DNA of 63,897 nucleotides, filler included, from Aduncisulcus paluster (Eukaryota): NCBI GenBank assembly GCA_024181965.1. It is 13 parts of 13 records of this genome, joined end to end, with 100 filler letters (N's around TTAATTAATTAA, not from the genome) between each part and the next. Parts side by side here need not be neighbours in the genome. Positions count along the whole stretch, not along the records: positions 58,734 to 60,707 come from BQXS01000143.1; 12 more parts are not named here. The stretch is one strand, 5' to 3'. Below are positions 1 through 61,572 of this stretch, piece after piece (within the stretch, counting starts at the first letter, position 1; each line of letters opens with the position of its first letter). The notes beneath the pieces were generated by a model that saw nothing but the letters and a program-made list of their open reading frames with translations, was not told where the DNA came from and made no database searches. The translations under genes and the position numbers were made by a program.

Positions 1-1018
1 CCGGACACATTAGCCGAAATCGACCGTCCCTATGTCGGCAAAACTGACGCCTGGCGCCGATTGAACGAGAGTTCTGTCCATTTTATCCACCCGTCAAGAG
101 AGGACAGCCATCCGAATCACTGTCATTAAGAAGCTGAATTGCCGTCGTGAAGACATTCCTGGGTATGTCAAACTCATTCGTTTGGGCCGTCCATGCTTCA
201 TTGAGCTGAAAGCCTTCTCGTTTGTCGGTGGAACAAGACATCACCATGACTTCTTTCTTTCTTCTCTCTTGCTAACGTTCCCTCCAGCCAGACCAGTGTG
301 TTGAGTATACAAAGTGGCTTGAGGCTGCCCTTGAAGGTGATTACAGTGTTGTCAGTGTCCACCACGAGAGCAAGGCTGTGCTTATGGTGCGCAGAGATCT
401 GTTTGTTGGTGGGAAATGGGTATCTTGGTTCGAAATGTGAATCGTCTGTCAGACTTTTTAGAAATAGAAAATTTACTTCAATATTCCACCATTCAACACT
501 TTGATTGATCGAGAACGAGAGTGAATGAAAAAGAGGAATAATTATGTTTTTTTTTTTTTTTTTTTTTTTTTCAAAATACTGTGAGAGATTGGCAGTAGGA
601 AATCCGAAAGGAAACATTATTCAAATAAAAATCTAGATTCGAAGCGATTTTCACGAAACATCACGTTAGTTTTAAACAAAAGAAGTACAGTTTAGCATTA
701 TGCTAAAAAAAAAAACCTGATTCGAAGAAAAACAGGAAACAGCAATAAACAAAGGATGTAAAAAAATAAAGAATATAAATATTAATTATAAGTTATAATA
801 TAACATTGTTAATATTTGAAGAATGTATAATCGCCAGAAACATTGTCGTTCTTTTTTATATAAATTGTAATTCTTGTTATTGTCCAGAGCCACATTAAGA
901 CAAGAGAAAGCGAGCAAAAGTATAATATAATTAAGAATAAATTGTAAACCATCATTCAATAAAATAAAATAAAATAAAATAAATAAATATATATATAAAA
1001 TTAAAGGTAAAGGTTTGA

Positions 1019-19409: not shown

Positions 19410-19504
19410 TGTTAACCATAATATGGGTGGTAAGCAAATTTATTAAGGAGTCTCCTTTTGGAGAATTAGAGCCGGTACATTCCGGTAACAACCGGTATAC
19501 ATCA
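19410..19504 (-). mobile_element. Isolated (solo-like) mini-LTR, 95 bp
   Basis: Minus strand TGATGTA...AATAAATTTGCT...GGTTAACA; close match to the LTR at 61490-61572. Confidence 0.72.
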
Positions 19505-36215: not shown

Positions 36216-39200
36216 TAGATACATTGTAAACATCAACGACTCTCTTCCCATCCTTTAAACGCACATACTCCTCGACTGAAGGCAATGGTGGCGCACAAAC
36301 GACATTTCCAAATGAAAACAATCTATTCCTGCAATCGTCATCAATGAGAGGCAACGAGAATAGGGAGAAGAAAGAAGCTGGGGAATGGATTGAACCCAAG
36401 AGACAGGATGAGGAAGCTCGGACATGTTGTTCCACATACCGATTTCCATCACCTCCAAGAATAGCAGCAACCGAATTGATCCGTTGAGGAGTAAAAAAAT
36501 GTTGCTGACATAACACATCGACAGCGGATGGTACATGGGAAGGATGGAAAGGAATGGAACCAGTGGAAATGATCTGCATCGAGATGGGTGACAGAATTCC
36601 ATTTTGCATTTCCTCCAAGGACACACATTCACATGCCGATGATACGGATAGAACGAACTCATTCACAGAGATGTGAGAAGGAGCAAGAGGCATGAGACAA
36701 GAGCGTTCAACATCATTCAGTGACACTCCAATGTACCCTTTACGCTTACCCTCATCGTCAACATCGACATCTTTGGCTCTGCTTGATAAGAAGGATGACT
36801 GGATCACTCTTCCACTCGGCTCGGCAGCTGGAATAATGGAAGGAAGGCCAAGTCGAACAGCACTCTCAAGCTCTGTCTCCTCGACATTAAAAGGGGAAGT
36901 AGGGGTCAAAACGGCACTCAAATGCCGGGAGAGAAGGCGTGGCAAAGTTGACAATGATGTTGACATGACATACATTCCGCTGCATTGACGACCAGGGAGA
37001 AGCTGTTCATTGAATAAGAAATCTCCAGATCCATGAGTAACAGAAACAAAAGTAGTCTCTTTCCTGGACTTGGGATGTGTGATGTTAGCAGCAGAACGAT
37101 TACTAACAGAATGTCCAGCCACACTGCCTCGACGGATTGTATTCCCATAGCTTCGTGTGGATTGGCTTACCCTATCGGTTGAAGGGATTCCACTCCTTTC
37201 ACCGATGTATTGAGAATCAGTATCAATCGTCTTCTGGATTTTGACACTCTCATTGCCCTTATTTAGGATACCCCACATCCACATTCCACCTAAAACCAAC
37301 ACACGTTCGAGGAAGAGCATCATACCTTCCCGACCAGTGACTTGTTTTCGTTGGGCACCAATAGACACGTCTCCACCGTGCTGCACGATATTGAATAGAC
37401 AATTCCTGAATATTGACTCCCAGGGGGTTCTATTCGGATATAGATGGTGTTTGGAGGGAGTATCTGTATGAGTTGGAAGCAAAAACACATTGGTTCCAGA
37501 CAAAAGAAGCAGAGTAGAACACAATATGTGAGGAAGAATGCGAAGAATCAGAGGAGGAGCTTGGGATGGAGGGAAGAGAGGAGATGATGTTCCCACAGAC
37601 NNNNNNNNNNNNNNNNNNNNGGAAGAGCATCATACCTTCCCGACCAGTGACTTGTTTTCGTTGGGCACCAATAGACACGTCTCCACCGTGCTGCACGATA
37701 TTGAATAGACAATTCCTGCATATTGACTCCCAGGGGGTTCTATTCGGATATAGATGGTGTTTGGAGGGAGTATCTGTATGAGTTGGAAGCAAAAACACAT
37801 TGGTTCCAGACAAAAGAAGCAGAGTAGAACACAATATGTGAGGAAGAATGCGAAGAATCAGAGGAGGAGCTTGGGATGGAGGGAAGAGAGGAGATGATGT
37901 TCCCACAGACTTGCCTAATAAAGCAGAAGCATCAGTTTCATTCTCAGAACCAGGATACTCTTCATCACTTATTACGGTTGAATTGGCCACATTAACACCC
38001 ATATCTTCGATCTTTTGTCCATTTTCTCCACTCATTGGTGCAGATGTGTCCTCTCCGTGCAAGACAAGATCAACTCCAACTTTCCTAAATTCATTTCCTT
38101 CGTATCCAGGAAGGTTCATTGCGACACAATTAAGCGACGTCTCAGTCCGTAGAACAAGAGGAGACCTGGAATGGGTCAGGGACAAGTGAGGGAACCAAGT
38201 GTACAAAGACGATGGAATAGCTGAATTTGAGGCGAAGGATTGGGAAGGAATTGATCCTGTTGAATGCTGAGGAGTTGATGACCCATGTCCTTCAAACACA
38301 CGGCCACTGGTGCGTTTGGAAAGACGAGATGTCGTGATTGCACCTGAAGCCTTCGCAGTAGTAGCAGATGGTTCAATGTCAGAGAAGAAATTTGATGAGA
38401 ATTTGACACGTTTGAGAAGGGAAGGTCCCAGTTCAACATCGAGAGCCTTTGAGAAAGATGTCTCAGCCGTTGAATGTTTCTTGTTTTGGCGGGCAACTTT
38501 TCGAAGTTCGACAGTTTCAAGACTAATGGAAAGACAACTTTGAGCGACACAGTACAAAGCAAAACAACTAGAAACGGCCTCACTAACACCCTGGGTGATG
38601 GTATTCTTCTTAAATGGAGATCCCTGAGAGTCCATTGTCTGAGATATCTGTTTATCTGTGGAACTAACAGGCAAAGTGAAACGAGGAAGGGTACCAACTC
38701 CAATAGAAGTTGGGAATGATCCAGAACCAGATTGAATGGCACCAGGGGTCACGTTCTTATCGCTACTAACACTGAGCTCAAAGAATCCAGAATCATTGAC
38801 AGAAATACTTGTTTTCCGAGTGCTACCTGCACGACTCATGGTGTCTGAGATATCAGTAATGCCACTTCTGTTACTGTTTCTATTGCTTTGACTCACAGTT
38901 GATCTTGTGACAGTCTGATTATGTGTCAAAATCTCATCCAGTCCTGCTTCATCGTCATTGATCACAGAGAATGACTCACAAATGGATGCAGGGTACACCA
39001 CATTAATGGCACACTCAAGGAGAGTGCAGAACATGTTCACAGCGGTGTTCACGAGCAATCCTTCAAGAAGAGGTAACAAGGCAGGAAGTTGCATTGCTGG
39101 ACAACAATCATTGTTGATAGAAGAGAATGAATGGACATCGGATGGTTTAAGGATGCTTGGGGAGACGCCTTTCTTCGAAGCTCGCAACATTCGTTTCCCT

Positions 39201-42200
39201 TCCATCTTCAACCTATCTTCCATTCTTTTCCTTTCCTTTTCCTCTCGTTTCTCCTCTCGGTGGACAATTTCCTCCATATAGTTCAAGATTGGCACCACAA
39301 ACTCACATAAAGTGTCAGAAAGGATATCAAATGAATTCCCAGAAGATAACAACTTCGAAGTGATGGTTCTTGGCACAGCAGATAGCACAGATGATCGAGA
39401 TGATGAAAGAGAGATAATTGGGACAGACAAACGAGATAACAGAGCCTGAGTCTCTTCCACCTTCTTTATAACCGAGGAATGACTCATATATGCTGTTGAA
39501 CAAGTGTGGACAAGAGAAGGATCTTGTGATGTCACACATACGATATGCAGCGTACCAGGTGTGAGTTCTTTCATTCCACTACTGATGACATCTCCAATCT
39601 CACTCTCGTTATGGCAAAGAGTCATCCTCACACAAATCCAACCAGCCGACCACACCATAGAGGCTACATTCATATTGGCAACGATAGTTTGAACCTGAAC
39701 ATGGGGAGTGAGCAACTTGTAAGCCAATAAAAGCAATTGAGGAACTTCTCTAGCGCCAGCAAATGGAGGAGAACGGACAACAACCACATGTGGAGGTTGG
39801 GATAAGAAGAAATGCATCTCCCTGGCAGCCTTCATCCATCTTGTATATGGTTCATGGAATGAACTCACTTTGTTCTTGGCATCGATCAACCTTACAGCCT
39901 GGTTCAAAGCTGCTGGGAGACCTTCAGTGAAGGGATGGAGTGGCAAGAATGTTGAAGAGGTGATTCTTGGAGATAATAGATGGATTGGAGAAGGAACGAG
40001 AAGAGGGTGGTTGTTGAAATGAGGAATATCAGGAGGATGTGAGAAGAAAGGTGAGAAAGAAGTCAATGACTCAACAGATAGGGGCGAAGGAACCCATTTT
40101 CTGCTATGATTAAGAACAGAGTTGAACAGATCGTCAAGGGAAGAATATGAAGAGGACATGAACACAGAAGCAACAACCATTTCACTGAAATTCTTGTTGT
40201 CGGCTGGAATTTGTTTTTCGAACACATCAGCAACATTATTGAGACAAAACAACTCATGGGATGACAGTTTACGAGTGGCTTGATCGAGATAATCCTTGAT
40301 TTTCTTCGTTGGTTGAGTTGTACTCGTGAGAGAAAGGGAAGGAAGAAGTCTACTACTCACCGCAGGAGACAAAATAGTGGGCTCCTTCTCTTTTTCTTCG
40401 CTGTTAGGGAATAATCTTGCGATATCTTGGGAAGCTCTCTCCTGACATACGACTGGGGTAGGTGCAACAATGAAGAAATACAATAGAATCGGAGATACAA
40501 GCATGGGAACTACACGTAAATGAGCTCTTTCATCACGTTGATTGGTTTGATACATCTCTGAAGCAATTGGATGTGTCAATGAAACGACAGTTTCCATTAG
40601 ATTCTCATCTTCTTCAGAAGACTTTTCATGGGACTTGCTCGACTCACCTTCAAGGACTTCTTTGATGGCTCTTTCCTCACGTTCTCTCATCTTGGCATAT
40701 TTCTGCTGTACTTTGAACCTTCCTGCAAGGGTGTTTCCAAGCGATCTCTGAATGTAATGGCCCTTTTTGTCACCATCTTTACCATTGAAAGGATCTTGGG
40801 ATTGGTATTCCTTCGAGTATCCTGAACTTTTAGAATCATCACCAGTATAATCATAGTCTTCAGAAGAATACTCATCTCGAGTTTCTTGCTGGGCAAAACG
40901 ACCTTTCACGGCACCAGAGGCTCTGCTGAACCTCGATTGACTGCTTCCTGCCAGCATAAGGGGAGGCGGTGGAATGGATGGATCATCGGAATGCTCCTGG
41001 GAATCTTCATCATTGGCATAGATGGCTGTTGATGACATTGAAAACTCAAAATCATCAGCGTCAAGTATTCCAAACACACTTAGATCAGAAATGCAACTAA
41101 GAGTCTCAATGGTTATAATAGGATTATCACATTCAATCATTTGAGAAGCTATACCAACCCATTTCAGGAAAAAGTTCTCACTCGTCATTGGAGAGGAGTC
41201 ATAACGTTTGTTTTTGCCGTTCATTCGAGACGACTCTACAAGTTGGAATACCTTATTGGTGGTTTCCCCGACAACATCTTGGGAATCTTCATCCAAGGTA
41301 GGAAGTTTAATGTGCTTAATGTCAATATCACGGGTTGTGGGTTGCACAGAGCTGAGATAGCCACGATTACTACGCAAAGCTGTGGCGAGAAGTTTGGGAG
41401 AGTGAGTATTGTGGGTTGGATGAAGATAGGCACTCCATTCCTTGTCATTTATCATTTGATGTTGCTTACATATGACAGCAGAGGCAATGGAACGAGATAA
41501 AGAAAGTTGATTCGAAGCGGCTTTAAGAATAATTTCAATTCTATTCTTTGAGTCAACATTTCCTTCCTCACATAAATGATAAGCCTTGCTTTGCATCTCA
41601 GAAGAAAGAGAGAATCGCTCATGAGGTATCAAAATCGATGATTGAAGGGCAAGGGTTTGAGCTTGGGAACTCTGATTCCTTTCTTGTTTGTCATCAATAT
41701 CTTTCAAATCAATCTTACATCCCTTGGGAACAGGATTCGTTGGTGAGGATTGATTGATCTTAAAAATGGGGAACGGTCTTTGAAGACAGCTAATTGCACC
41801 TTGTAACTCAAGCCATCCAAAAATAGCAACATCGAGAATGGCGGAATTCACATTCTGGAAGTTCTTTAACACGTCAATCCCATCCAGTTCTTCTTGGGAA
41901 TATTGTTGTGCACGTTGGGGCTGAGCTTGTTGGGGCTGAGCTTGTTGTTTTGTTGCGGTGTTATCAGCCTTAACCTCACTAGTTGCTGAAGATGAGACAT
42001 ATGACTGATGAGTCAGAGCAGGAATATCACTAACTTCTTCTTCCACGTCAGAAGAGATATCTTCAGAGCGAGCAGTCTCCCCCATCCTCATAATCGAGTC
42101 ATACATGTCATCACTGAGTTGAATGATAGAAACTCCATGGAGGGTAGGTCCAATACTTTTCACAAGAGCTGTCAAGAATTGTTTGGACTGACGTTGTTTC

Positions 42201-45200
42201 AATGTCAGAACCATCGTACCCTTTGCAGAGAGAGATCCTCCGGACATGATATTCTGTGTTCCACCCTCTTCTTCTGACTCGTCATACTCATCGTTGAACT
42301 CCTTCACAAGTTTTCTGGAGGAGGAAGGGGGAGGAGACACAGAGGCCAAGGTGTTAACTCTTTCATTTTCAGTCTCTTCTAAACTCCGATCTCTTGCACT
42401 GACCCACACTCTCTCCCGTTTTCCAGACTTATTCTTCTGCATCTTATGGATTGGGATATGAAGAGAAGATGGAGTTCCTGTCGAAGCAATTGATAGGAGA
42501 GCAAGTTCGGCGCCAGAAAGAACATCAGAAAACAAGGATGGTTCAAGTCTGAGGATTCCACTAAGAGAAAGCTCAATAAATCCACATCCAGAAGGAACAA
42601 GAGGAGATGTGATAGCCCCGAATACATCAGCATGAGGGAAAAGCAACATGGAGTTCAATTCATACCGAATCGGAAACTTGAACAATCTCGAAGTATTGAT
42701 GACATTGAAGATATCTATTGTTGACATGAGACTCTTCAAATACTCGAGGGAAAGAGTGGAGCCTGTGAGTTCGGAAGGACTAATAGTGTCAGTTTTGGAG
42801 TGAGGAACACTTGGAATTCCTTGAGTTTTCTCTTGTTTCCTTGCATTGATCAACAATTGCATCAAGAGACTTCTCATATAAAATTTGATTTCATCTCTAC
42901 AATCAATAATGGCACATGAGTTTTGCAACGTTTGCAAAAGTTGTTGGGGCAATTCCAAATGAAGAGCGATTGAAGTTTTCATCAGAGCCAGAATCTCAAT
43001 CAACACATTACGCTCCAGCATCTCAGCCTTCATTGAAGCACCATCAATACACAAGAATGGCACCATAATCTCCACTTTATCCTTTGTGGACATCTTCGAA
43101 CCTCTCTTAGAATCCATATCTAATCTGTCAAATGGCTTCACGGGAGATATTTCAGGTTGGGGACGGTGTGAATCGGCATGGGGTGTATGAAGAGAAGAAG
43201 ATGCAGGTGATTCAGGTCGCACTTGGGGAGATGACACTATCTCAGAGTACGGAAGAACCTCACTGTCCTCACGAACGACACAGAACACTCGGGTTGAAAT
43301 GGTGGAAATTGTGACGAGACAAGATACAAGACGCTCAAATATCGTGCAGAAATCATAAGCAGGTTTCATGGAGAGAGCAAAAGCGCTTGACATACACATT
43401 CTCAGACCTAAAAATAGAGAAGCCGAACTAAAAGCGGAGACACAATGATTATCAGAATGCTTAATTACTGATTTTGTTGGAAGGAACCAACGAGCCGGGA
43501 TATTTGCAATTGGAACCTTCAAGTTTTCGATTGGTTTCATGTGTCTTTCTGGAGGATGGGTATGAGTTGACTGTTGTTTCATTAGGTCCTCTTCAGAAAT
43601 GACTGATGGTGGAGAGAAGGTTGACACCTGAGGTGCTTTTGAGGTCGAAACTGACAAATAAGATGATGGAATGGTAGAATCTGATGGATCTGTTGCAATA
43701 ACTGTTGTGTCAGAGTTCGAAGACAATGGATTATTGAATGTCCGGGCAGTCCGACTGAATGGAGATGCGATAGCAGAAGGAACAAGAGCCGTCTTGAGGT
43801 GAGCTGGAGGAGTTAAAATAAGTCTCCAATCACACAGAGCAGAGAGAGAGTATCTCTTGATAGTTTCAACGACCTGACTTCTCAGAACAGCCAGTAACCA
43901 AGTGATGGGATGGACATGGGGCTTTGTTCGTTGAATCCACTCGTTATCCACAATGAGATCTTTTTCCCACAATGAAGGTCCAACTGGGGCTCCATGTGGA
44001 TTGTGATGTGTGGACGTCGATCTCTGTCCGCTCACTCCCGACATGGACTCATTGGCAGTCTGTATATCTGACGTCATGCTCTTGGAAGATGATTGAATAG
44101 AGGCAGCATGAAGCGTGGAAAGTTCTTCATGGGACGTGTCAATCTTCAGAGCAGCTCCAGATGTCGAGGAACGATACAAAGGACTTGAGCCCATCTTACT
44201 TTCTTCTCTCAGAGCCCACAATTTCTCCTTATCTGTTTTGCGTCTCCGTGGCAAAAGAACATTGGAACAATCGATTGGATTCATCAAAAGAAGCCTTTCG
44301 CCACCAACGAGGACAACTCCAACGATGCACAAACCAGTTTCGCTCAAAATGATTCCACAGATTCCTGGAATGCATCGATATACAATATTCAGAGTATGCA
44401 GGAGTGGGGTCGAATTAAGAGCCTTCAGGGGCAGAGTCGAGGGGAGAGTACACATCGATGACTGATACACGCCAATTCGAGGGGTGATTGAAGGCGAGAG
44501 GATAGTGGGTTGTCTTCGAAGGAAGGAAGAACTCTTTCGAGAACGATAAGACGTCGGAGTCGAATTCCCATCCTCAATACTTGAAATAAGAGTTCGAGCA
44601 GATGACATACGAGAGGCCGGGGCTGTCTTTTCAGAACTTTCTTTAACGTCAAGTTCACTCTTACTTAAGTGTTTCTCATATTCCTCAGTCTTCTCTTTGG
44701 CTTTCATTCCAATTTCCACTTCCCCACAAATTCTATCAGTGACAGGGTTCATCCGACAACTCTCATACAGAACAGAACACGCGATATCACAATTCATCAC
44801 AACACTACCGTGTGTACTATCATGAGCAGTTGGCAACAAAGAAGACCTGAGATTATCAGAAATAATTACAAGCTCATCCAATGACGCAGTTAAGAGAACA
44901 TCCGGAGATATCTCACATTGACCATATGACAACAGAGTAACCCACTCAGCTCCACTCAAAGAGCGCAGTTTATCAATTACCTCATAAAAGTGGAAAATGA
45001 GGGGAGAGGAATGGGTATGAGAATGAGATCTTGGGCTTGGAGACATGTCATACGTCACAGTTTCAGGAGGAAGATGTCTTCCCCACGAATAGGCTGGAGG
45101 TTTGATCTTCCTTCTCTTGCGGTTCTTCTTTGCTTTGTTCTCACCAGCACGAGTCGGAAGAGGGATGGACAACGTAGGTTTTGCAACATTATCTTTCTTA

Positions 45201-48200
45201 ACGACCAAGTCTTCCTGCAATTGCTGGATTCCAGTGAGTTCACAGCAACTCTTGGATAACATTCTTGCAGTACCATCTTCAAGAAGCAAAGAAACGGCAG
45301 ATAGAGCTTCATTTGAACTGATAATAATAACTCGTTCACCTGTGAGAGATTCATCCTTGTCATTAACAACGGTTTGTGACTTGGGAGTTTTTGGGATTGT
45401 CGGGATGCTTGCAGAAATTCCTGTGACCTCTGCCAAATTATTGGCACTCGACTGTTTTTGGTTACCTTTCTCATTGGAAGCATTTTCTTCACTTGTTTTG
45501 GTCAACATCTTCATTTCTTCACGGAACTTGACTTTCAACGGAGTCGTGTTGAATCGCATGATATCCATAAGAACCTCCCAATTTCCAGCCTCGATATTAC
45601 ATTCGACAAGAGGAACATCAAGCATGGCTTCGCATTGTTTCACTGAGGATAAGATGGAAGAGAGAACATGTACTACAACAGCGAGACCAGATGGAAGAAG
45701 AGGAGGAAGAATTGATCCGATATTCAACGGATTAGTTTTTAAACATAAGGCGACAGCACTGACACGGGAGACAGCCACACAGACTTTGGCTAACAGAGCA
45801 ATGAAGGAATCAAGACGTTTGAAAGAATGGTGATAATGCAAAAGAGCAGATAAATGAGGAGCAGAAAAGGGAGCATGAATGGCATTCTCAGCCAAACAGA
45901 TGTGTTTTGAGAGTTGAGAGAGGAATATCATACCTTCTTCAATCTTTTGATCATCAGCAAGGGATGTGGATGCACCCATACGCTTGGAACGTGAATTGAA
46001 AGGATTCGCCTTATCACGAGTCTTCATATCTGTGAAGGAAGACTCGGCTCGAGGGGATCCAGGCCTATCCATCTGTCCATCAGCTTGCTTAGGAGTAAAC
46101 AAATGGGCACGAGCGGTGAGACGAGCGGTGTTTCCGCCTCCACCCCAACTTCTATCGCCTGAACCACCTTTGTCCTCTTCTTTTCTTGATGACTTGTTCT
46201 TCTTGGATGTTGTGTTGACAGACTTGTCTGCACCCATCTCCTTCTCGGCTGACTGTTCCATTGACAACAACTCTACGGCACTACTGAGTGAGAAATTAAC
46301 ATCCATCTCCTCAATTTTCCAGGCAATGATCAATGTTGCCGGTAACAAAGTCTCTGTGTTTAAGGAGAACCAGTATTCTTTCAAATTGGAAAGCAAACGA
46401 TCCACGACAGATTCTCCAGTGGCTTGTAAAAGAACAGAATCAACAGCAGACCGGTGAAGGGAGAGATCAAGTCGCAATGCACTCTCAAGAGAAATATCAT
46501 CCACACTTGACTTGAGTTTCTGCTCTGAAGGGATGGCACGCACCTCATAGTCGGCTTGCTCATTCTCCTCAGACTCTTCCTCGAAGCTTTCACCAGAGGA
46601 GTCACTGAGTTCAGATTGTTTTTGAAGGGCAAACTTTCTGCCCTCTTCAATCCTCCAAAGAGCACGACGTCTCTGCTCTTCAATGACATTCGTGGGCTTA
46701 TCTTTTTCATGCTCTTCTCGTTTCAATATTCTATTTTGACCCTTGAAAACTCCAACGCCTCGTTCACGCTCATGAGAATCGAACACTCTCGCATAAAGAA
46801 CATCTTCCGTTTCATGTGCAACGGAGTGAGCAAGTATTTTCCAATGGATAAGTCGGAATGGGGTGTTAGAGTCGAATATGAATTGAAGCAACTGGAAAGA
46901 TGTTGAATAGAAATCAACAACTCGGAGCAATTCTCCAACCATGAACCATTGCTTGCGATCTCTGCTATGAATGTGCGTGGCCCGAATGGGTTCACTGATG
47001 ATATCTTGGAGATAGTGTTGCTCTCCAACACAATCAACAGAAAGGACAGTGGAATTGAACCACTCTCGCCGCCTGCTATCAAGAAGATTAGCCTTACTCC
47101 ACAGTCCACTGACATGCTTTAACATTGTGTTTCCATGTTCAATTCGCTTGAAGACTCTAATGTCACTCCCAAGAACACGAGAACAGTTCCTGAGCTGGCA
47201 ACAATGATCGGACACAACGCTCAACTTATGCCTGAACTTATCAATAATGTGGATGGCTGCATCAATCGCTTCCTTGTTGAACATATCATGGGGTCCTCTT
47301 ATGGATGCACGGGCAATATGGGTGGCTGACTCAAGTTTTGAAGCAGGGATAATCTCTGTGTGAGAAGCAAGTATTTCGACTCCCAATGGTTGTTGAGAAA
47401 CTGAGGCTACAGGTTTCCTCATGATAGTCCTTGTCACATTAGTCAAAGAAATACCATTGCGATTGGTGTTAGGGTCTTTGATAAGAAGTTCCTTACAGTT
47501 TCTGATTTGTTGCAGGAGCATCTTGCTTGCTTCGTCAGTTCGATCACATTCTGTTGTAATATCCTTGAGGATAACAGGGATAACACGTTCAACACTCAAC
47601 AAAACCTCAGAAATCCAGGCATCAAGTCGTTTCACCTTGGCCAAACACTTCGAATGGATAGAATTCAATTCATGAACCACATCGGTACAATCACCACCGT
47701 CTTTCAGGATAACACGGAGAAGATCTCCGACAGCTTCCAAAGTTTCTTGTATAATGCTCTTCCGAATTGTGAAAGAAAATCTTCTGTTCAATATAATCAG
47801 TGTATTATGTTTAACGGTATAAATATCAACGTTATCGCCATTTGTCACTTGGAGGGCATCAGAGATGTCTTTTTCGAATGATCTAATCACATTTATACAT
47901 TTTATAATCCATTTCAAAGCAATGTGAGTGATTGGTTGTCTTGTAACAGCTGTACTATGCTTCACAGCACTTGATAGGGAGAATTTGGCACCTATTAACT
48001 TCACAACGAGGGCTCCACACCTCTTCTCGTCATCAACTTTTCTCAAACCATCCATAACATTCCTCATGGGATCGAGAGAGATATCAAGGAGTCGCGAAGG
48101 AGATGGAAGAGATGAAAAGGCTTTGAGATCATTCCTGGCTTTCTTTTCAGCTGGAATACCAACAGTGGGATCGTTAGTCGGGAAGTATGACTCGGCAACG

Positions 48201-48581
48201 CCTTCTTCCAGGATTCTGGGATCGAATATTGTCTTAGCAACAGATAACAACTCACAAGATCCATCCTCTTCTTCTTCCTCTTCTTCCTCTTCCTCTTCTT
48301 CTTCCTCTTCCTCTTCCTCGTATTCTGCAAAGTCTTCATCAAAGTCAAATTCGTCCTCTTCTTCCTCATCTGCACTATGTGAGGTACGGGCTAATCTGCT
48401 TCTTTTCTGTTTCTTGGGCTTTATATTGGCGCCATATTGCCTCTTCTCCTTCTTGACCATGTCTTCAAAAGACACAGATCCCCTCCCTGCGAGTGACTGT
48501 CTCTGTTCATCGTTGAGCATATCCACATAGACAGAAATAGACTCGAAGAAAGAGGGAGAGAGGAAGGAAGAGGAGTGATCG
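36216..48581 (-). CDS. Very large (~4000 aa, both ends open) degenerate dynein-heavy-chain-like protein; split by gap artefact at 37601-37620
   Basis: DHC linker-like LW...W...VD, FRLIHWKIL, QATGESVVDRLLSNLKEYW; AAA2-like WMKAAREMH...HVVVVRSPPFAGAREV; AAA3-like TNVFLLPTHTDTPSK; no intact Walker A seen. Confidence 0.6.
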
Positions 48582-48725
48582 NNNNNNNNNNNNNNNNNNN
48601 NNNNNNNNNNNNNNNNNNNNNNNNNTTAATTAATTAANNNNNNNNNNNNNNNNNNNNNNNNNNNNNNNNNNNNNNNNNNNNATCGATATATTCGAACCCA
48701 ACCTACATGTCACAATATTGCAGAT

Positions 48726-49165: not shown

Positions 49166-49265
49166 GGTATGACCTAGGTCATACATAAGTCCGACCGTGG
49201 TCATACCTTCATTGGAGGCAAACACGGTATGACCTAGGTCGGGACCTAAAAAAGTCATCGCTGTG
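49166..49265. repeat. Palindromic GGTATGACC repeats ending in CTGTG (CACAG on minus): candidate DNA-transposon end
   Basis: 18-bp perfect palindrome GTATGACCTAGGTCATAC at 49167-49184, GGTCATACC at 49199-49207, GGTATGACCTAGGTC at 49226-49240. Confidence 0.55.
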
Positions 49266-59476: not shown

Positions 59477-60002
59477 CTACCCCCTTTTCTTCTCAGAGAG
59501 CAATTTCACTTCATTCCTTCCCCTCCATTAATCACTTAATATTTATAATTATAAATAAAAAAAAATTATATAGGTAATTATAATTTAACTAGATTTTCGA
59601 TAACATATTGCTTGAAAATTTCTAAACCACCTACGACATCAACTCGTCCCCACGATTTTACCTTTTGTCGACCTATGGTCCATTCTACCAAGTAGAATCT
59701 TTCATTTCCTTCCATACGGTGTTCTATTATTTGCGTAACCTTTCCGTCGAACTTCTCATTCACGTCTATTTTCTGTGTTCCATAAAATTCCCTCAGAACA
59801 CTCACATGAACGATTTTCCGTACGTCTTCCGTGATTTTAATTTCATAGTGAAATTCATCTTCCTTTTTTGTAACTTCAAACGGCCCTAACATTGTTGCAT
59901 CCAACTTTTTCTTATTTTCGTTTATAACCAACACCCTTTGACCAACTTCGTACTTAATCCTTTCTGCTTTCCTCCTCTTTAGAATAATATCTTGCCTAAA
60001 GA
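59477..60002 (-). mobile_element. Chromovirus 3' end: GPF + chromodomain (stop 59578), PPT at 59514-59526, start of LTR
   Basis: YEVGQRVLV...LGPFEV...VHVSVLREF...IIEHR...FYLVEW; GGAGGGGAAGGAA followed by TG. Confidence 0.82.
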
Positions 60003-60075
60003 TGATGTTATGGCCCAGTTCTAAAAATAGAATACACATAGAAGATTTCTTTTTAGTAAATTTGCTACCGCAACA
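60003..60075 (+). mobile_element. 5' mini-LTR (73 bp)
   Basis: TGATGT...AGTAAATTTGCTACCGCAACA; interrupts the minus-strand pol; gag-like ATG at 60099. Confidence 0.68.
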
Positions 60076-60098
60076 TTTTTGATCAAAAACAAAGGTAG

Positions 60099-60707
60099 AT
60101 GATAAGCCCTGAAACTGACCTTTTTCGAGTGCCTTTATTGGCAAAATACGGAGAAGCAGCCTTCCGGTCATTTCTTGAAAAATTTCGTAGATACCGAGCT
60201 CTGAATGGAAAAGCTGCCCTATTTGTGTGTATTACAGCACCAATCCGGAAGATCTACGAGAGTATCGGGAAATGTCAACTTGTGAACCCAGCTATTCCAA
60301 ATCCTGCTGATGATGGACTTCCTGTCGCTACCGAGAAGGTTTTCTTGAAAAAAATATCGGATTTTTATGGAAAAAAATCCGCGTTGGACGTATTATATGA
60401 ATTACAACGTTTAAAACTCCGCAAGGCGGACGAACGTTCTGTCAGTTTTTTTGTACAGCGCCTACATCAACTACTTGATACTGTGGACCCGGAAGATCCC
60501 CTAAATGAGGACATTATTGTAAAAACGCTGCTCGATAATATCCTATTATCTCGCTTTCGTACGAGACTGGATGTGGCACTTCAGTGTGAGGATAAGTCAC
60601 TATCTGACTTTACGAGGGTAATTCTGGAACAATGTCAGATCGTCAGTGAAGCACAGGAGGATGCTGCTGGTTACGGTGAGGCAGAACCACCCAGACAATC
60701 GTTTGAG
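60099..60707 (+). mobile_element. Gag-like ORF, 3' truncated
   Basis: Follows the LTR; LQRLKL....VSFFVQRLHQL capsid-like pattern; FLEKFRRY..LNG....CI paralogous to FIRRFREY..RGG....CI at 62216-62464. Confidence 0.65.
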
Positions 60708-60807: not shown

Positions 60808-61418
60808 CTTGTTAGTGGGCTTGCGAATGCCTCTGTGAGAAATTCATCTGATGCTAGAGCATGATGGGTCTTTAGGGGTGATGGATACCTCGGTAGAGTT
60901 CCACATACGGGTGGGGAAAGTTTCTTTTGCTCGTGAGGATCAGCGAAATCTAATGGGTCACTTACAGGGTTTGCTGCGGCAGGGGCCTGGGTTCGAGTCT
61001 CGGTGTCGCTGATAAATTTTTTCTCACCGAAAATAGGTTCATGGGGATGAGTGGAAATGGACATTTTTTCTTTCTCAGTTTTAAAAATAGGAAATTTTAC
61101 GAATTTACCAGGTGAAGCAGTATCACTGGACGTCTCCAGTGAATTTTTTGATTCAGTGTAAGTTCGAGCTTCTAATAACTCCACTTTGTTCGTTAGCCTA
61201 AGAATTGCTTTTGACATGATGTCCAATGCCGTTTGTTGTTGAGTAATGAGCTTGTTGAGCGTGGAAATTTCAGTAGTAGGAATTTCGACAGCCTCGGTGT
61301 GATCAGCACCGGAAATTATTTTCATGGAATGCGCAGGAGTAGTTTCTTCCTTGCCAGATCCCGGTCTGGCCTCCAGTTGTATTCTTTGAAATTGTTTCTC
61401 CAAATCTTTGCTTCTCAT
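60808..61418 (-). mobile_element. Gag-like ORF N-terminus (coiled coil + P-rich region), 3' truncated
   Basis: ATG 72 nt downstream of the LTR end at 61490; frame open to contig end. Confidence 0.5.
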
Positions 61419-61489
61419 TTAAAATATTATAATTCAGTATAAGCAAAGTTTTAGAAAAGTATTCAAATAAGAAATAACAATAATATTAT

Positions 61490-61572
61490 TGTTAACCCTG
61501 TTTAGGGTGGCTAGCAAATTTATTATCGAGAATTAGAGCCGGTACATGCCGGTAACTACCGGTTATACATCA
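61490..61572 (-). mobile_element. 5' mini-LTR (83 bp)
   Basis: TGATGTA...AATAAATTTGCTAGCCACCC...GGTTAACA; close match to 19410-19504; abuts an integrase remnant. Confidence 0.75.

Follow-up and report, generated by a model that had tools for sequence, protein, structure and literature searches.

To our knowledge, nearly all long terminal repeat (LTR) elements and retroviruses use a host tRNA to start reverse transcription, and Tf1 is the sole exception to have been worked out. Tf1 primes itself with its own RNA, RNase H cutting an RNA duplex to free the primer (bioRxiv 10.1101/2022.12.06.519325). The fungal GalEa elements of the Ty1/copia class carry a Conserved Hairpin Site (CHSeq1/CHSeq2), a 10-bp palindrome that replaces the primer-binding site (PBS) and for which the available part of the report states no mechanism (Donnart et al. 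2017, PMC5445492). Skipper, a chromovirus of dictyostelids, has a polypyrimidine stretch and, in the sections available, an unexplained mode of priming (PMC5006619), and bivalve TRIMs are likewise described, in the text at hand, as being without a clear primer site (PMC6934838).

Here we describe elements in which a palindrome takes the place of the tRNA site. Their host, Aduncisulcus paluster, is a fornicate, a free-living, anaerobic flagellate. Large-subunit rRNA marks the DNA as eukaryotic, and one protein of the assembly is identical to a database entry labelled with this species. A palindromic site reported for gypsy elements or for this host was not found in the open-access literature. 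The window, i.e. the whole stretch of DNA analysed (63,897 nt, filler included), consists of short contigs strung together by N runs and linkers, and the focal site lies in contig G000:C143 (58734–60707). Elsewhere in the window, an open frame of 3731 codons (37430–48625, minus strand) spans one short N gap.

A young family inserted in other elements

In contig G000:C143, a plus-strand integrase core is followed by a second, minus-strand element, represented by its integrase end, into which the focal element has inserted (Table 1). The interrupted integrase (59578–60005) is close in sequence to the C-terminus of a complete element at locus L189. The right end of the focal insertion was not found. 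Copies of the focal family are often nested in other LTR elements, be it in the integrase, the reverse transcriptase (RT) or the LTR (L001, L003, L004, L006, L012), as might be expected from chromodomain-guided insertion.

Table 1. Coordinates of the features discussed, as positions in the window.
Feature	Position	Strand	Evidence
C-terminal part of an integrase from another gypsy element, into which the focal element inserted	59578..60005	-	SH3_Tf2-1, E 4e-7
Expected left copy of the 5-bp target duplication of the focal insertion	60001..60005	+	Deduced from two matched 5-bp pairs in the focal family and two complete relatives
5′ LTR, 70 bp, TGTT...AACA, of a young Ty3/gypsy family	60006..60075	+	Both boundaries from 18 other genomic matches
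TCTA-W4-TAGA box, putatively TATA-like	60020..60031	+	Either orientation in other families
AGTAAA, likely poly(A) signal by its presumed function	60055..60060	+	Kept as ARTAAA in LTRs of other families
Perfect 14-bp palindrome TTTTTGATCAAAAA at the PBS position, flush with the LTR end	60076..60089	+	Identical in all 13 5′ copies
Leader, 9 nt, from palindrome to start codon	60090..60098	+	Sequence
gag, cut by the contig end	60099..60707	+	Frame stays open into CCHC knuckle and protease in other copies
Second example: 20-bp palindrome between an LTR-like stretch (about 61490–61572) and a gag-like ORF from 61418, different branch	61475..61494	-	

Searching the genome with 59990–60200 returned 19 matches, namely 13 5′ ends, four 3′ LTRs, one solo LTR and one copy cut by a contig end. 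In the 12 5′ ends other than the window's own, the common sequence begins at 60006 (a few extend 1–4 bases further by chance), while the four 3′ LTRs, which stand behind a polypurine tract, and the solo LTR all diverge past 60075. An earlier note on this DNA had placed a 73-bp LTR at 60003–60075. Its end is retained, but a start at 60003 is rejected since the copies share sequence from 60006 only, and 60003–60005 is consequently target DNA. Loose ends in run X1, a set of contigs of uncertain type, agree with both boundaries, perhaps not independently. The same note was right about the perfect 14-bp palindrome, the absence of any TGG-led PBS after the focal LTR, and the position of a gag-like ATG at 60099, whose ORF is indeed gag, leading in other copies into a protease motif.

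With its copies 96–100% alike, the focal family is young. In two cases, a left and a right flank have 5 bp in common, corresponding to a target duplication. Linkage within the family covers gag, CCHC knuckle and protease, with no RT linked among the contigs examined. Five of the 13 5′ copies (L005, L008, L009, L010, L011) have in common a one-base loss early in gag, pointing either to a subfamily that has spread with this frameshift or to one variant repeated in the assembly.

Within the LTR, the TCTA-W4-TAGA box may be a TATA box and ARTAAA a poly(A) signal, which would leave just a few tens of bases for R and U5. AGTAAA at 60055–60060 resembles the Giardia poly(A) signal. The pattern of box plus ARTAAAYT had 607 matches, compared to seven for a reversed control.

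Of the 19 copies of the focal 14-mer in the genome, 16 lie behind an LTR of the focal or a sister family; at the three copies outside elements, no RNA gene was apparent by eye. Palindromes of at least 14 bp arose in 1.15% of 2000 shuffles of 60003–60101, and the window contains other palindromes of about this size. On its own, the focal site is thus weak, suggestive evidence and proves little; significance rests on the comparison across families.

Relatives belong to the Ty3/gypsy class

Direct LTRs with TG...CA ends, a polypurine tract and a target duplication of 4–5 bp mark the elements as Ty3/gypsy. Both LTRs were found on one contig for no copy of the focal family and for four relatives (LTRs of 79–96 bp), of which two have a 5-bp target duplication, one a 4-bp duplication and one none that is clear. 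P0130, a complete relative, has the gypsy order of gag, protease, RT, RNase H, integrase and chromodomain; the integrase follows RNase H in the relatives, which departs from the Ty1/copia domain order. The best solved-structure match of the relatives' RT is Ty3 RT (E 4e-78). A chromodomain (PF00385) lies at the integrase end in P0130 and P0001, both of them relatives with no direct tie to the focal family.

A FastTree phylogeny of 130 RT sequences, built without named Tf1 or Skipper sequences, groups 36 host RTs in a clade (support 0.98) apart from all 32 metagenome RTs. Also in this clade are three further RT-search matches, two of them labelled with the host species, and 18 outside proteins that were found via gag similarity, among them one with the label Andalucia godoyi. 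A metagenome scan yielded 80 gypsy loci, all from other branches, and the seven with clear LTR ends comprised four TGG sites, three pyrimidine-rich sites and no palindromes. In two further metagenome gypsy elements, likewise from other branches, palindromes stand where the contig cuts off the LTR end (L274, 128–141; L275, about 425–445). Viral and prokaryote collections scanned with two outside relatives gave no matches. The palindromic site is documented here for this genome only.

Palindromes adjoin the LTR across gag families

Sampling started from the focal gag, which has 110 genome matches; 30 were taken as loci and a further 40 regions were chosen to cover the gag start. An LTR-motif search contributed another 30 loci and an RT search (150 matches) 30 loci plus 20 regions, and 20 longer stretches completed the sample. 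A gag profile gave 85 distinct starts, which formed 60 clusters at 80% identity, 44 of them at E ≤ 1e-12.

Within the 90 nt before gag, 41 of these 44 families have a perfect palindrome of at least 12 bp (vs. 4.9% of 8800 shuffles), and 29 have one of at least 14 bp (vs. 1.2% of shuffles). Enrichment after other 5′ LTRs relative to shuffled sequence, a point raised in the earlier note, is thereby borne out. By our reading, two of the three families without a palindrome have another element's LTR inserted there and the third looks decayed. Just three of the 16 weaker gag clusters reach 12 bp, and most anchors in this set fall inside reading frames. Only one of 21 non-gag flanks has a 12-bp palindrome. 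In the RT-anchored sample of 20 regions, ten long ORFs reach into gag and nine of the ten have a palindrome: eight beside the ORF start and a ninth further up, before a separate gag frame. The tenth has no 5′ end in the stretch. The palindrome at the primer-site position is a real and strongly conserved feature of elements in this genome.

In all 45 clusters tabulated, the palindrome directly follows CA, from the first base past the LTR, with a core of 8, 10, 12 or 14 nt; 20 distinct core sequences occur. The next base is a T pairing with the LTR's last A in 42 families, the focal family being among the three whose palindrome stops at the LTR edge. The overlap with the LTR end is 0, 1 or 2 nt, except in one branch where it is longer; for 15 of the 45 families, a separate 3′ or solo copy bears out CA as the LTR end. 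On a gag tree of 40 families (five were omitted as too short), at least 39 paired changes were counted, five at the central pair and eight at the next; because the families were chosen for being palindromic, this count measures turnover rather than symmetry. One abundant family is represented by 38 copies, 36 with perfect palindromes and two with single changes; a symmetric double change was sought among them and not found.

Several variants were noted in passing. An LTR-like copy at 19410–19504 is 75% similar to the LTR-like stretch of the minus-strand element at 61380–61572, whose branch (L114, L107, L122) has longer palindromes. A two-LTR element in L114 has the same type of palindrome, an LTR ending in TA and a 4-bp target duplication, and families whose LTR apparently ends in TA rather than CA keep a flush palindrome (G000:C1731, C2612, C4778 and others). 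At L028/L113, L078, L093, L101 and L104, a polypurine tract precedes the LTR while a palindrome and gag follow it, i.e. these are tandem elements with one LTR in common. Unlike the LTR-flush sites, a repeated palindrome of 18–20 bp with partial copies nearby (window 49167–49184; L119, 2870–2889; L111, 4220–4231) has no tie to an LTR and probably belongs to another mobile element.

A proposed model of priming between packaged RNAs

These sites are best explained by a protist clade of Ty3/gypsy elements that gave up tRNA priming, a reading we place slightly above even odds. By a similarly narrow preference, we infer that priming occurs in trans, packaged RNAs pairing via the palindrome and one of them being cut to give the primer. 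Two genomic RNAs in a particle would pair head to head through the palindrome, forming a duplex of 12–16 bp. A cut in one strand where this duplex ends on the 3′ side, for which RNase H of the element is the likeliest enzyme if the analogy with Tf1 holds, would free a 3′-OH; facing the partner's U5, this end would prime minus strong-stop DNA. The RNA primer would in turn be copied into plus strong-stop DNA, and since the site is self-complementary, this DNA could anneal to the minus-strand copy of the site in the second transfer. In each cycle, the site would form a heteroduplex with its mirror image, so both arms would change together.

As minus-strand synthesis starts at the LTR end and needs the complement of the 5′ arm, the primer must equal the palindrome's 3′ arm, and the element's own RNA is the only family-specific primer source found. 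The steps after duplex formation are proposals, and the cut position is unreadable from the sequence because the palindrome overlaps the LTR end by a variable number of nucleotides. In two copies, the C of the LTR's terminal CA is changed to A, which was considered as templating by an overhanging primer; this idea was dropped on account of a third such change without matching flank.

Tentatively put forward in the earlier note, tRNA-independent priming is thus partly supported: the 3′ LTR boundary was right, no match was found among 40 tRNA sequences, palindromes stand before gag in nearly all families, and the self-complementary site is conserved. Of the three routes then suggested, pairing between two RNAs would fit best and fold-back is disfavoured.

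Alternative explanations

Full palindromes have predicted self-duplex energies of –6.8 to –20.6 kcal/mol and two focal 5′ regions gain –16.6 kcal/mol, while the weakest, all-A/U palindromes, at about –7 to –9 kcal/mol, would be marginal without a chaperone. Such energies, like the covariation, fit any intermolecular duplex, including one that serves only in dimerisation or packaging in the manner of a retroviral dimer initiation site, with priming left to a small RNA, a protein or de novo initiation. A predicted fold of the focal RNA, in which the palindrome is unpaired inside a 5-bp stem, also suits such a signal. However, an enclosing stem was found in 36 of the 45 families vs. 75% in shuffles, i.e. 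without enrichment, and a conserved stem presenting the palindrome in its loop was accordingly rejected. Moreover, the palindrome starts immediately behind the LTR in each of the 45 families and so leaves no room for another primer site, whereas retroviral dimer sites, as the available part of PMC5445492 describes them, exist in addition to a PBS. We therefore regard a pure dimerisation signal as unlikely, if the foremost among the alternatives.

Improbable, too, is self-priming by fold-back in cis, in which the RNA would be cut after the palindrome and its 3′ arm would pair with its own 5′ arm. Fold-back needs no partner RNA and would likewise predict a family-specific palindrome flush with the LTR, whose central symmetry would be maintained by the second strand transfer. 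Yet hairpin energies of the cores are just 0 to –0.3 kcal/mol: 18 of 20 cores form no hairpin, the other two reach –0.2 and –0.3 kcal/mol, and 10-nt cores leave a 3-bp stem. The hairpin reading is further weakened because paired changes hit central positions that a loop would leave free. Given that pairing in cis is too weak, pairing between two packaged RNAs is favoured; in two complete elements, the sole match of at least 9 nt to the site is the palindrome itself.

The palindrome lies 5–60 nt before the gag start and is AT-rich, as would befit a DNA-level or promoter element, e.g. a sequence bound by a dimeric protein or an AT-rich initiator in front of the start codon. This account is very unlikely, as it would have to accommodate 20 different, perfectly symmetric sequences in one nucleus, and only four of 44 other long ORFs have such a palindrome upstream, two of these four looking like elements themselves.

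Primers derived from a tRNA half, another host RNA or a tRNA-like unit in the elements' 3′ non-coding region fare worse still. The 45 sites were compared with 40 distinct tRNA sequences with CCA added, an incomplete set (63 of 1712 candidates scored) in which several isoacceptors are missing and some members look bacterial. Against this set, sites formed at most two pairs from the CCA end and at most six Watson-Crick pairs anywhere, so that the complementarity to host tRNA 3′ ends or internal stretches considered in the earlier note did not materialise; allowing G-U pairs, the best runs were 10–11 nt. A TGG-led tRNA site within 3 nt of the LTR was found in none of the 45 families, and 479 kb of host loci held three chance TGG-led matches, none seen at an LTR end. 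Clusters of tRNA genes that encode CCA in an operon-like arrangement (L038, L041, L063, L064) point to bacterial contigs in G000.

Many families, including the focal one, have tRNA-like A-box/B-box units without an acceptor stem near their 3′ end, in sense or antisense and with family-specific spacers (L017, about 872–926, plus strand; L182, L108, L147, L148, L196, L199); these are possibly binding sites of TFIIIC. As candidate primers they were rejected, forming at most three Watson-Crick pairs with the site in the four families tested. The tRNA-like units of Helenus are, in the text available, also reported as not complementary to its PBS (PMC10886601). The outside copies of the focal 14-mer, without an apparent RNA gene, and the many palindromic primers that 20 site sequences would require likewise leave a tRNA piece or other host RNA a very remote prospect.

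A degenerate form of Tf1-type self-priming, with the transcript's 5′ end inside the LTR pairing with the site, is no less far-fetched and would leave the symmetry unexplained, even though relatives have a chromodomain. At most seven Watson-Crick pairs with their own upstream 150 nt were found in 43 of the 45 families, compared to a best of nine among seven outside elements, a weak positive control; one of the two exceptions is a tandem duplicate of the site, and one family has a 9-nt match in the LTR. The Tf1-like pairing proposed earlier at 60022 is rejected, since the partner is the TATA-like box, which is in the opposite orientation in many other families, and only five Watson-Crick pairs form.

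Comparison with known systems

Priming through paired RNAs would combine traits of several described elements. As in Tf1 and the sushi chromoviruses, these are gypsy elements with a chromodomain and without a tRNA site, and a primer taken from their own RNA by cutting a duplex is proposed by analogy; unlike in Tf1, where the available account describes the transcript's 5′ end pairing in cis with a non-palindromic PBS, no such partner was found in the families studied here (bioRxiv 10.1101/2022.12.06.519325). Palindromes follow the LTR here, as opposed to the polypyrimidine stretch described in the accessible part of the Skipper report (PMC5006619). In joining two genomes, the palindrome would resemble the retroviral dimer initiation site and the tRNA-mediated dimer of Ty3; those sites, in the parts of the reports available, are additional to the tRNA site, whereas here the palindrome replaces it and has no conserved loop (PMC5445492, PMC5371799).

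The closest likeness is to the GalEa site: in both, a palindrome abuts the 5′ LTR where a PBS would be expected, with the cores TGATCA and TAATTA occurring in both, and the LTR's last A is included in the palindrome, here in 42 of 45 families although not in the focal one (PMC5445492, as far as available). GalEa elements are copia elements with a 10-bp palindrome in two main sequences, to which the supplements may add variants, as compared to Ty3/gypsy elements with 12–20 bp and 20 covarying sequences here (PMC5445492). The second complementary arm that the available text places 12–41 nt downstream in GalEa was found in none of our 45 families (within 60 nt, one mismatch allowed).

The present elements offer a far cleaner case than GalEa, comprising dozens of gypsy families in which 20 different palindromes covary, a second arm is absent and LTRs go down to 70 bp (70–180 bp where measured). 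Many covarying palindromes without a second arm, together with short LTRs, narrow the options to pairing between two RNAs, which is testable with short RNAs. LTR finders that require a tRNA site or LTRs longer than 100 bp will miss such elements. If true, mutual priming via a palindrome would also explain the GalEa site. We see an even chance that, beside tRNA priming and the loop-back of Tf1, there is a third general way to start reverse transcription in LTR elements, in which each of two packaged genomes serves as primer for the other, dimerisation and priming coincide, and which arose at least twice, in protist gypsy elements and in the fungal GalEa copia elements.
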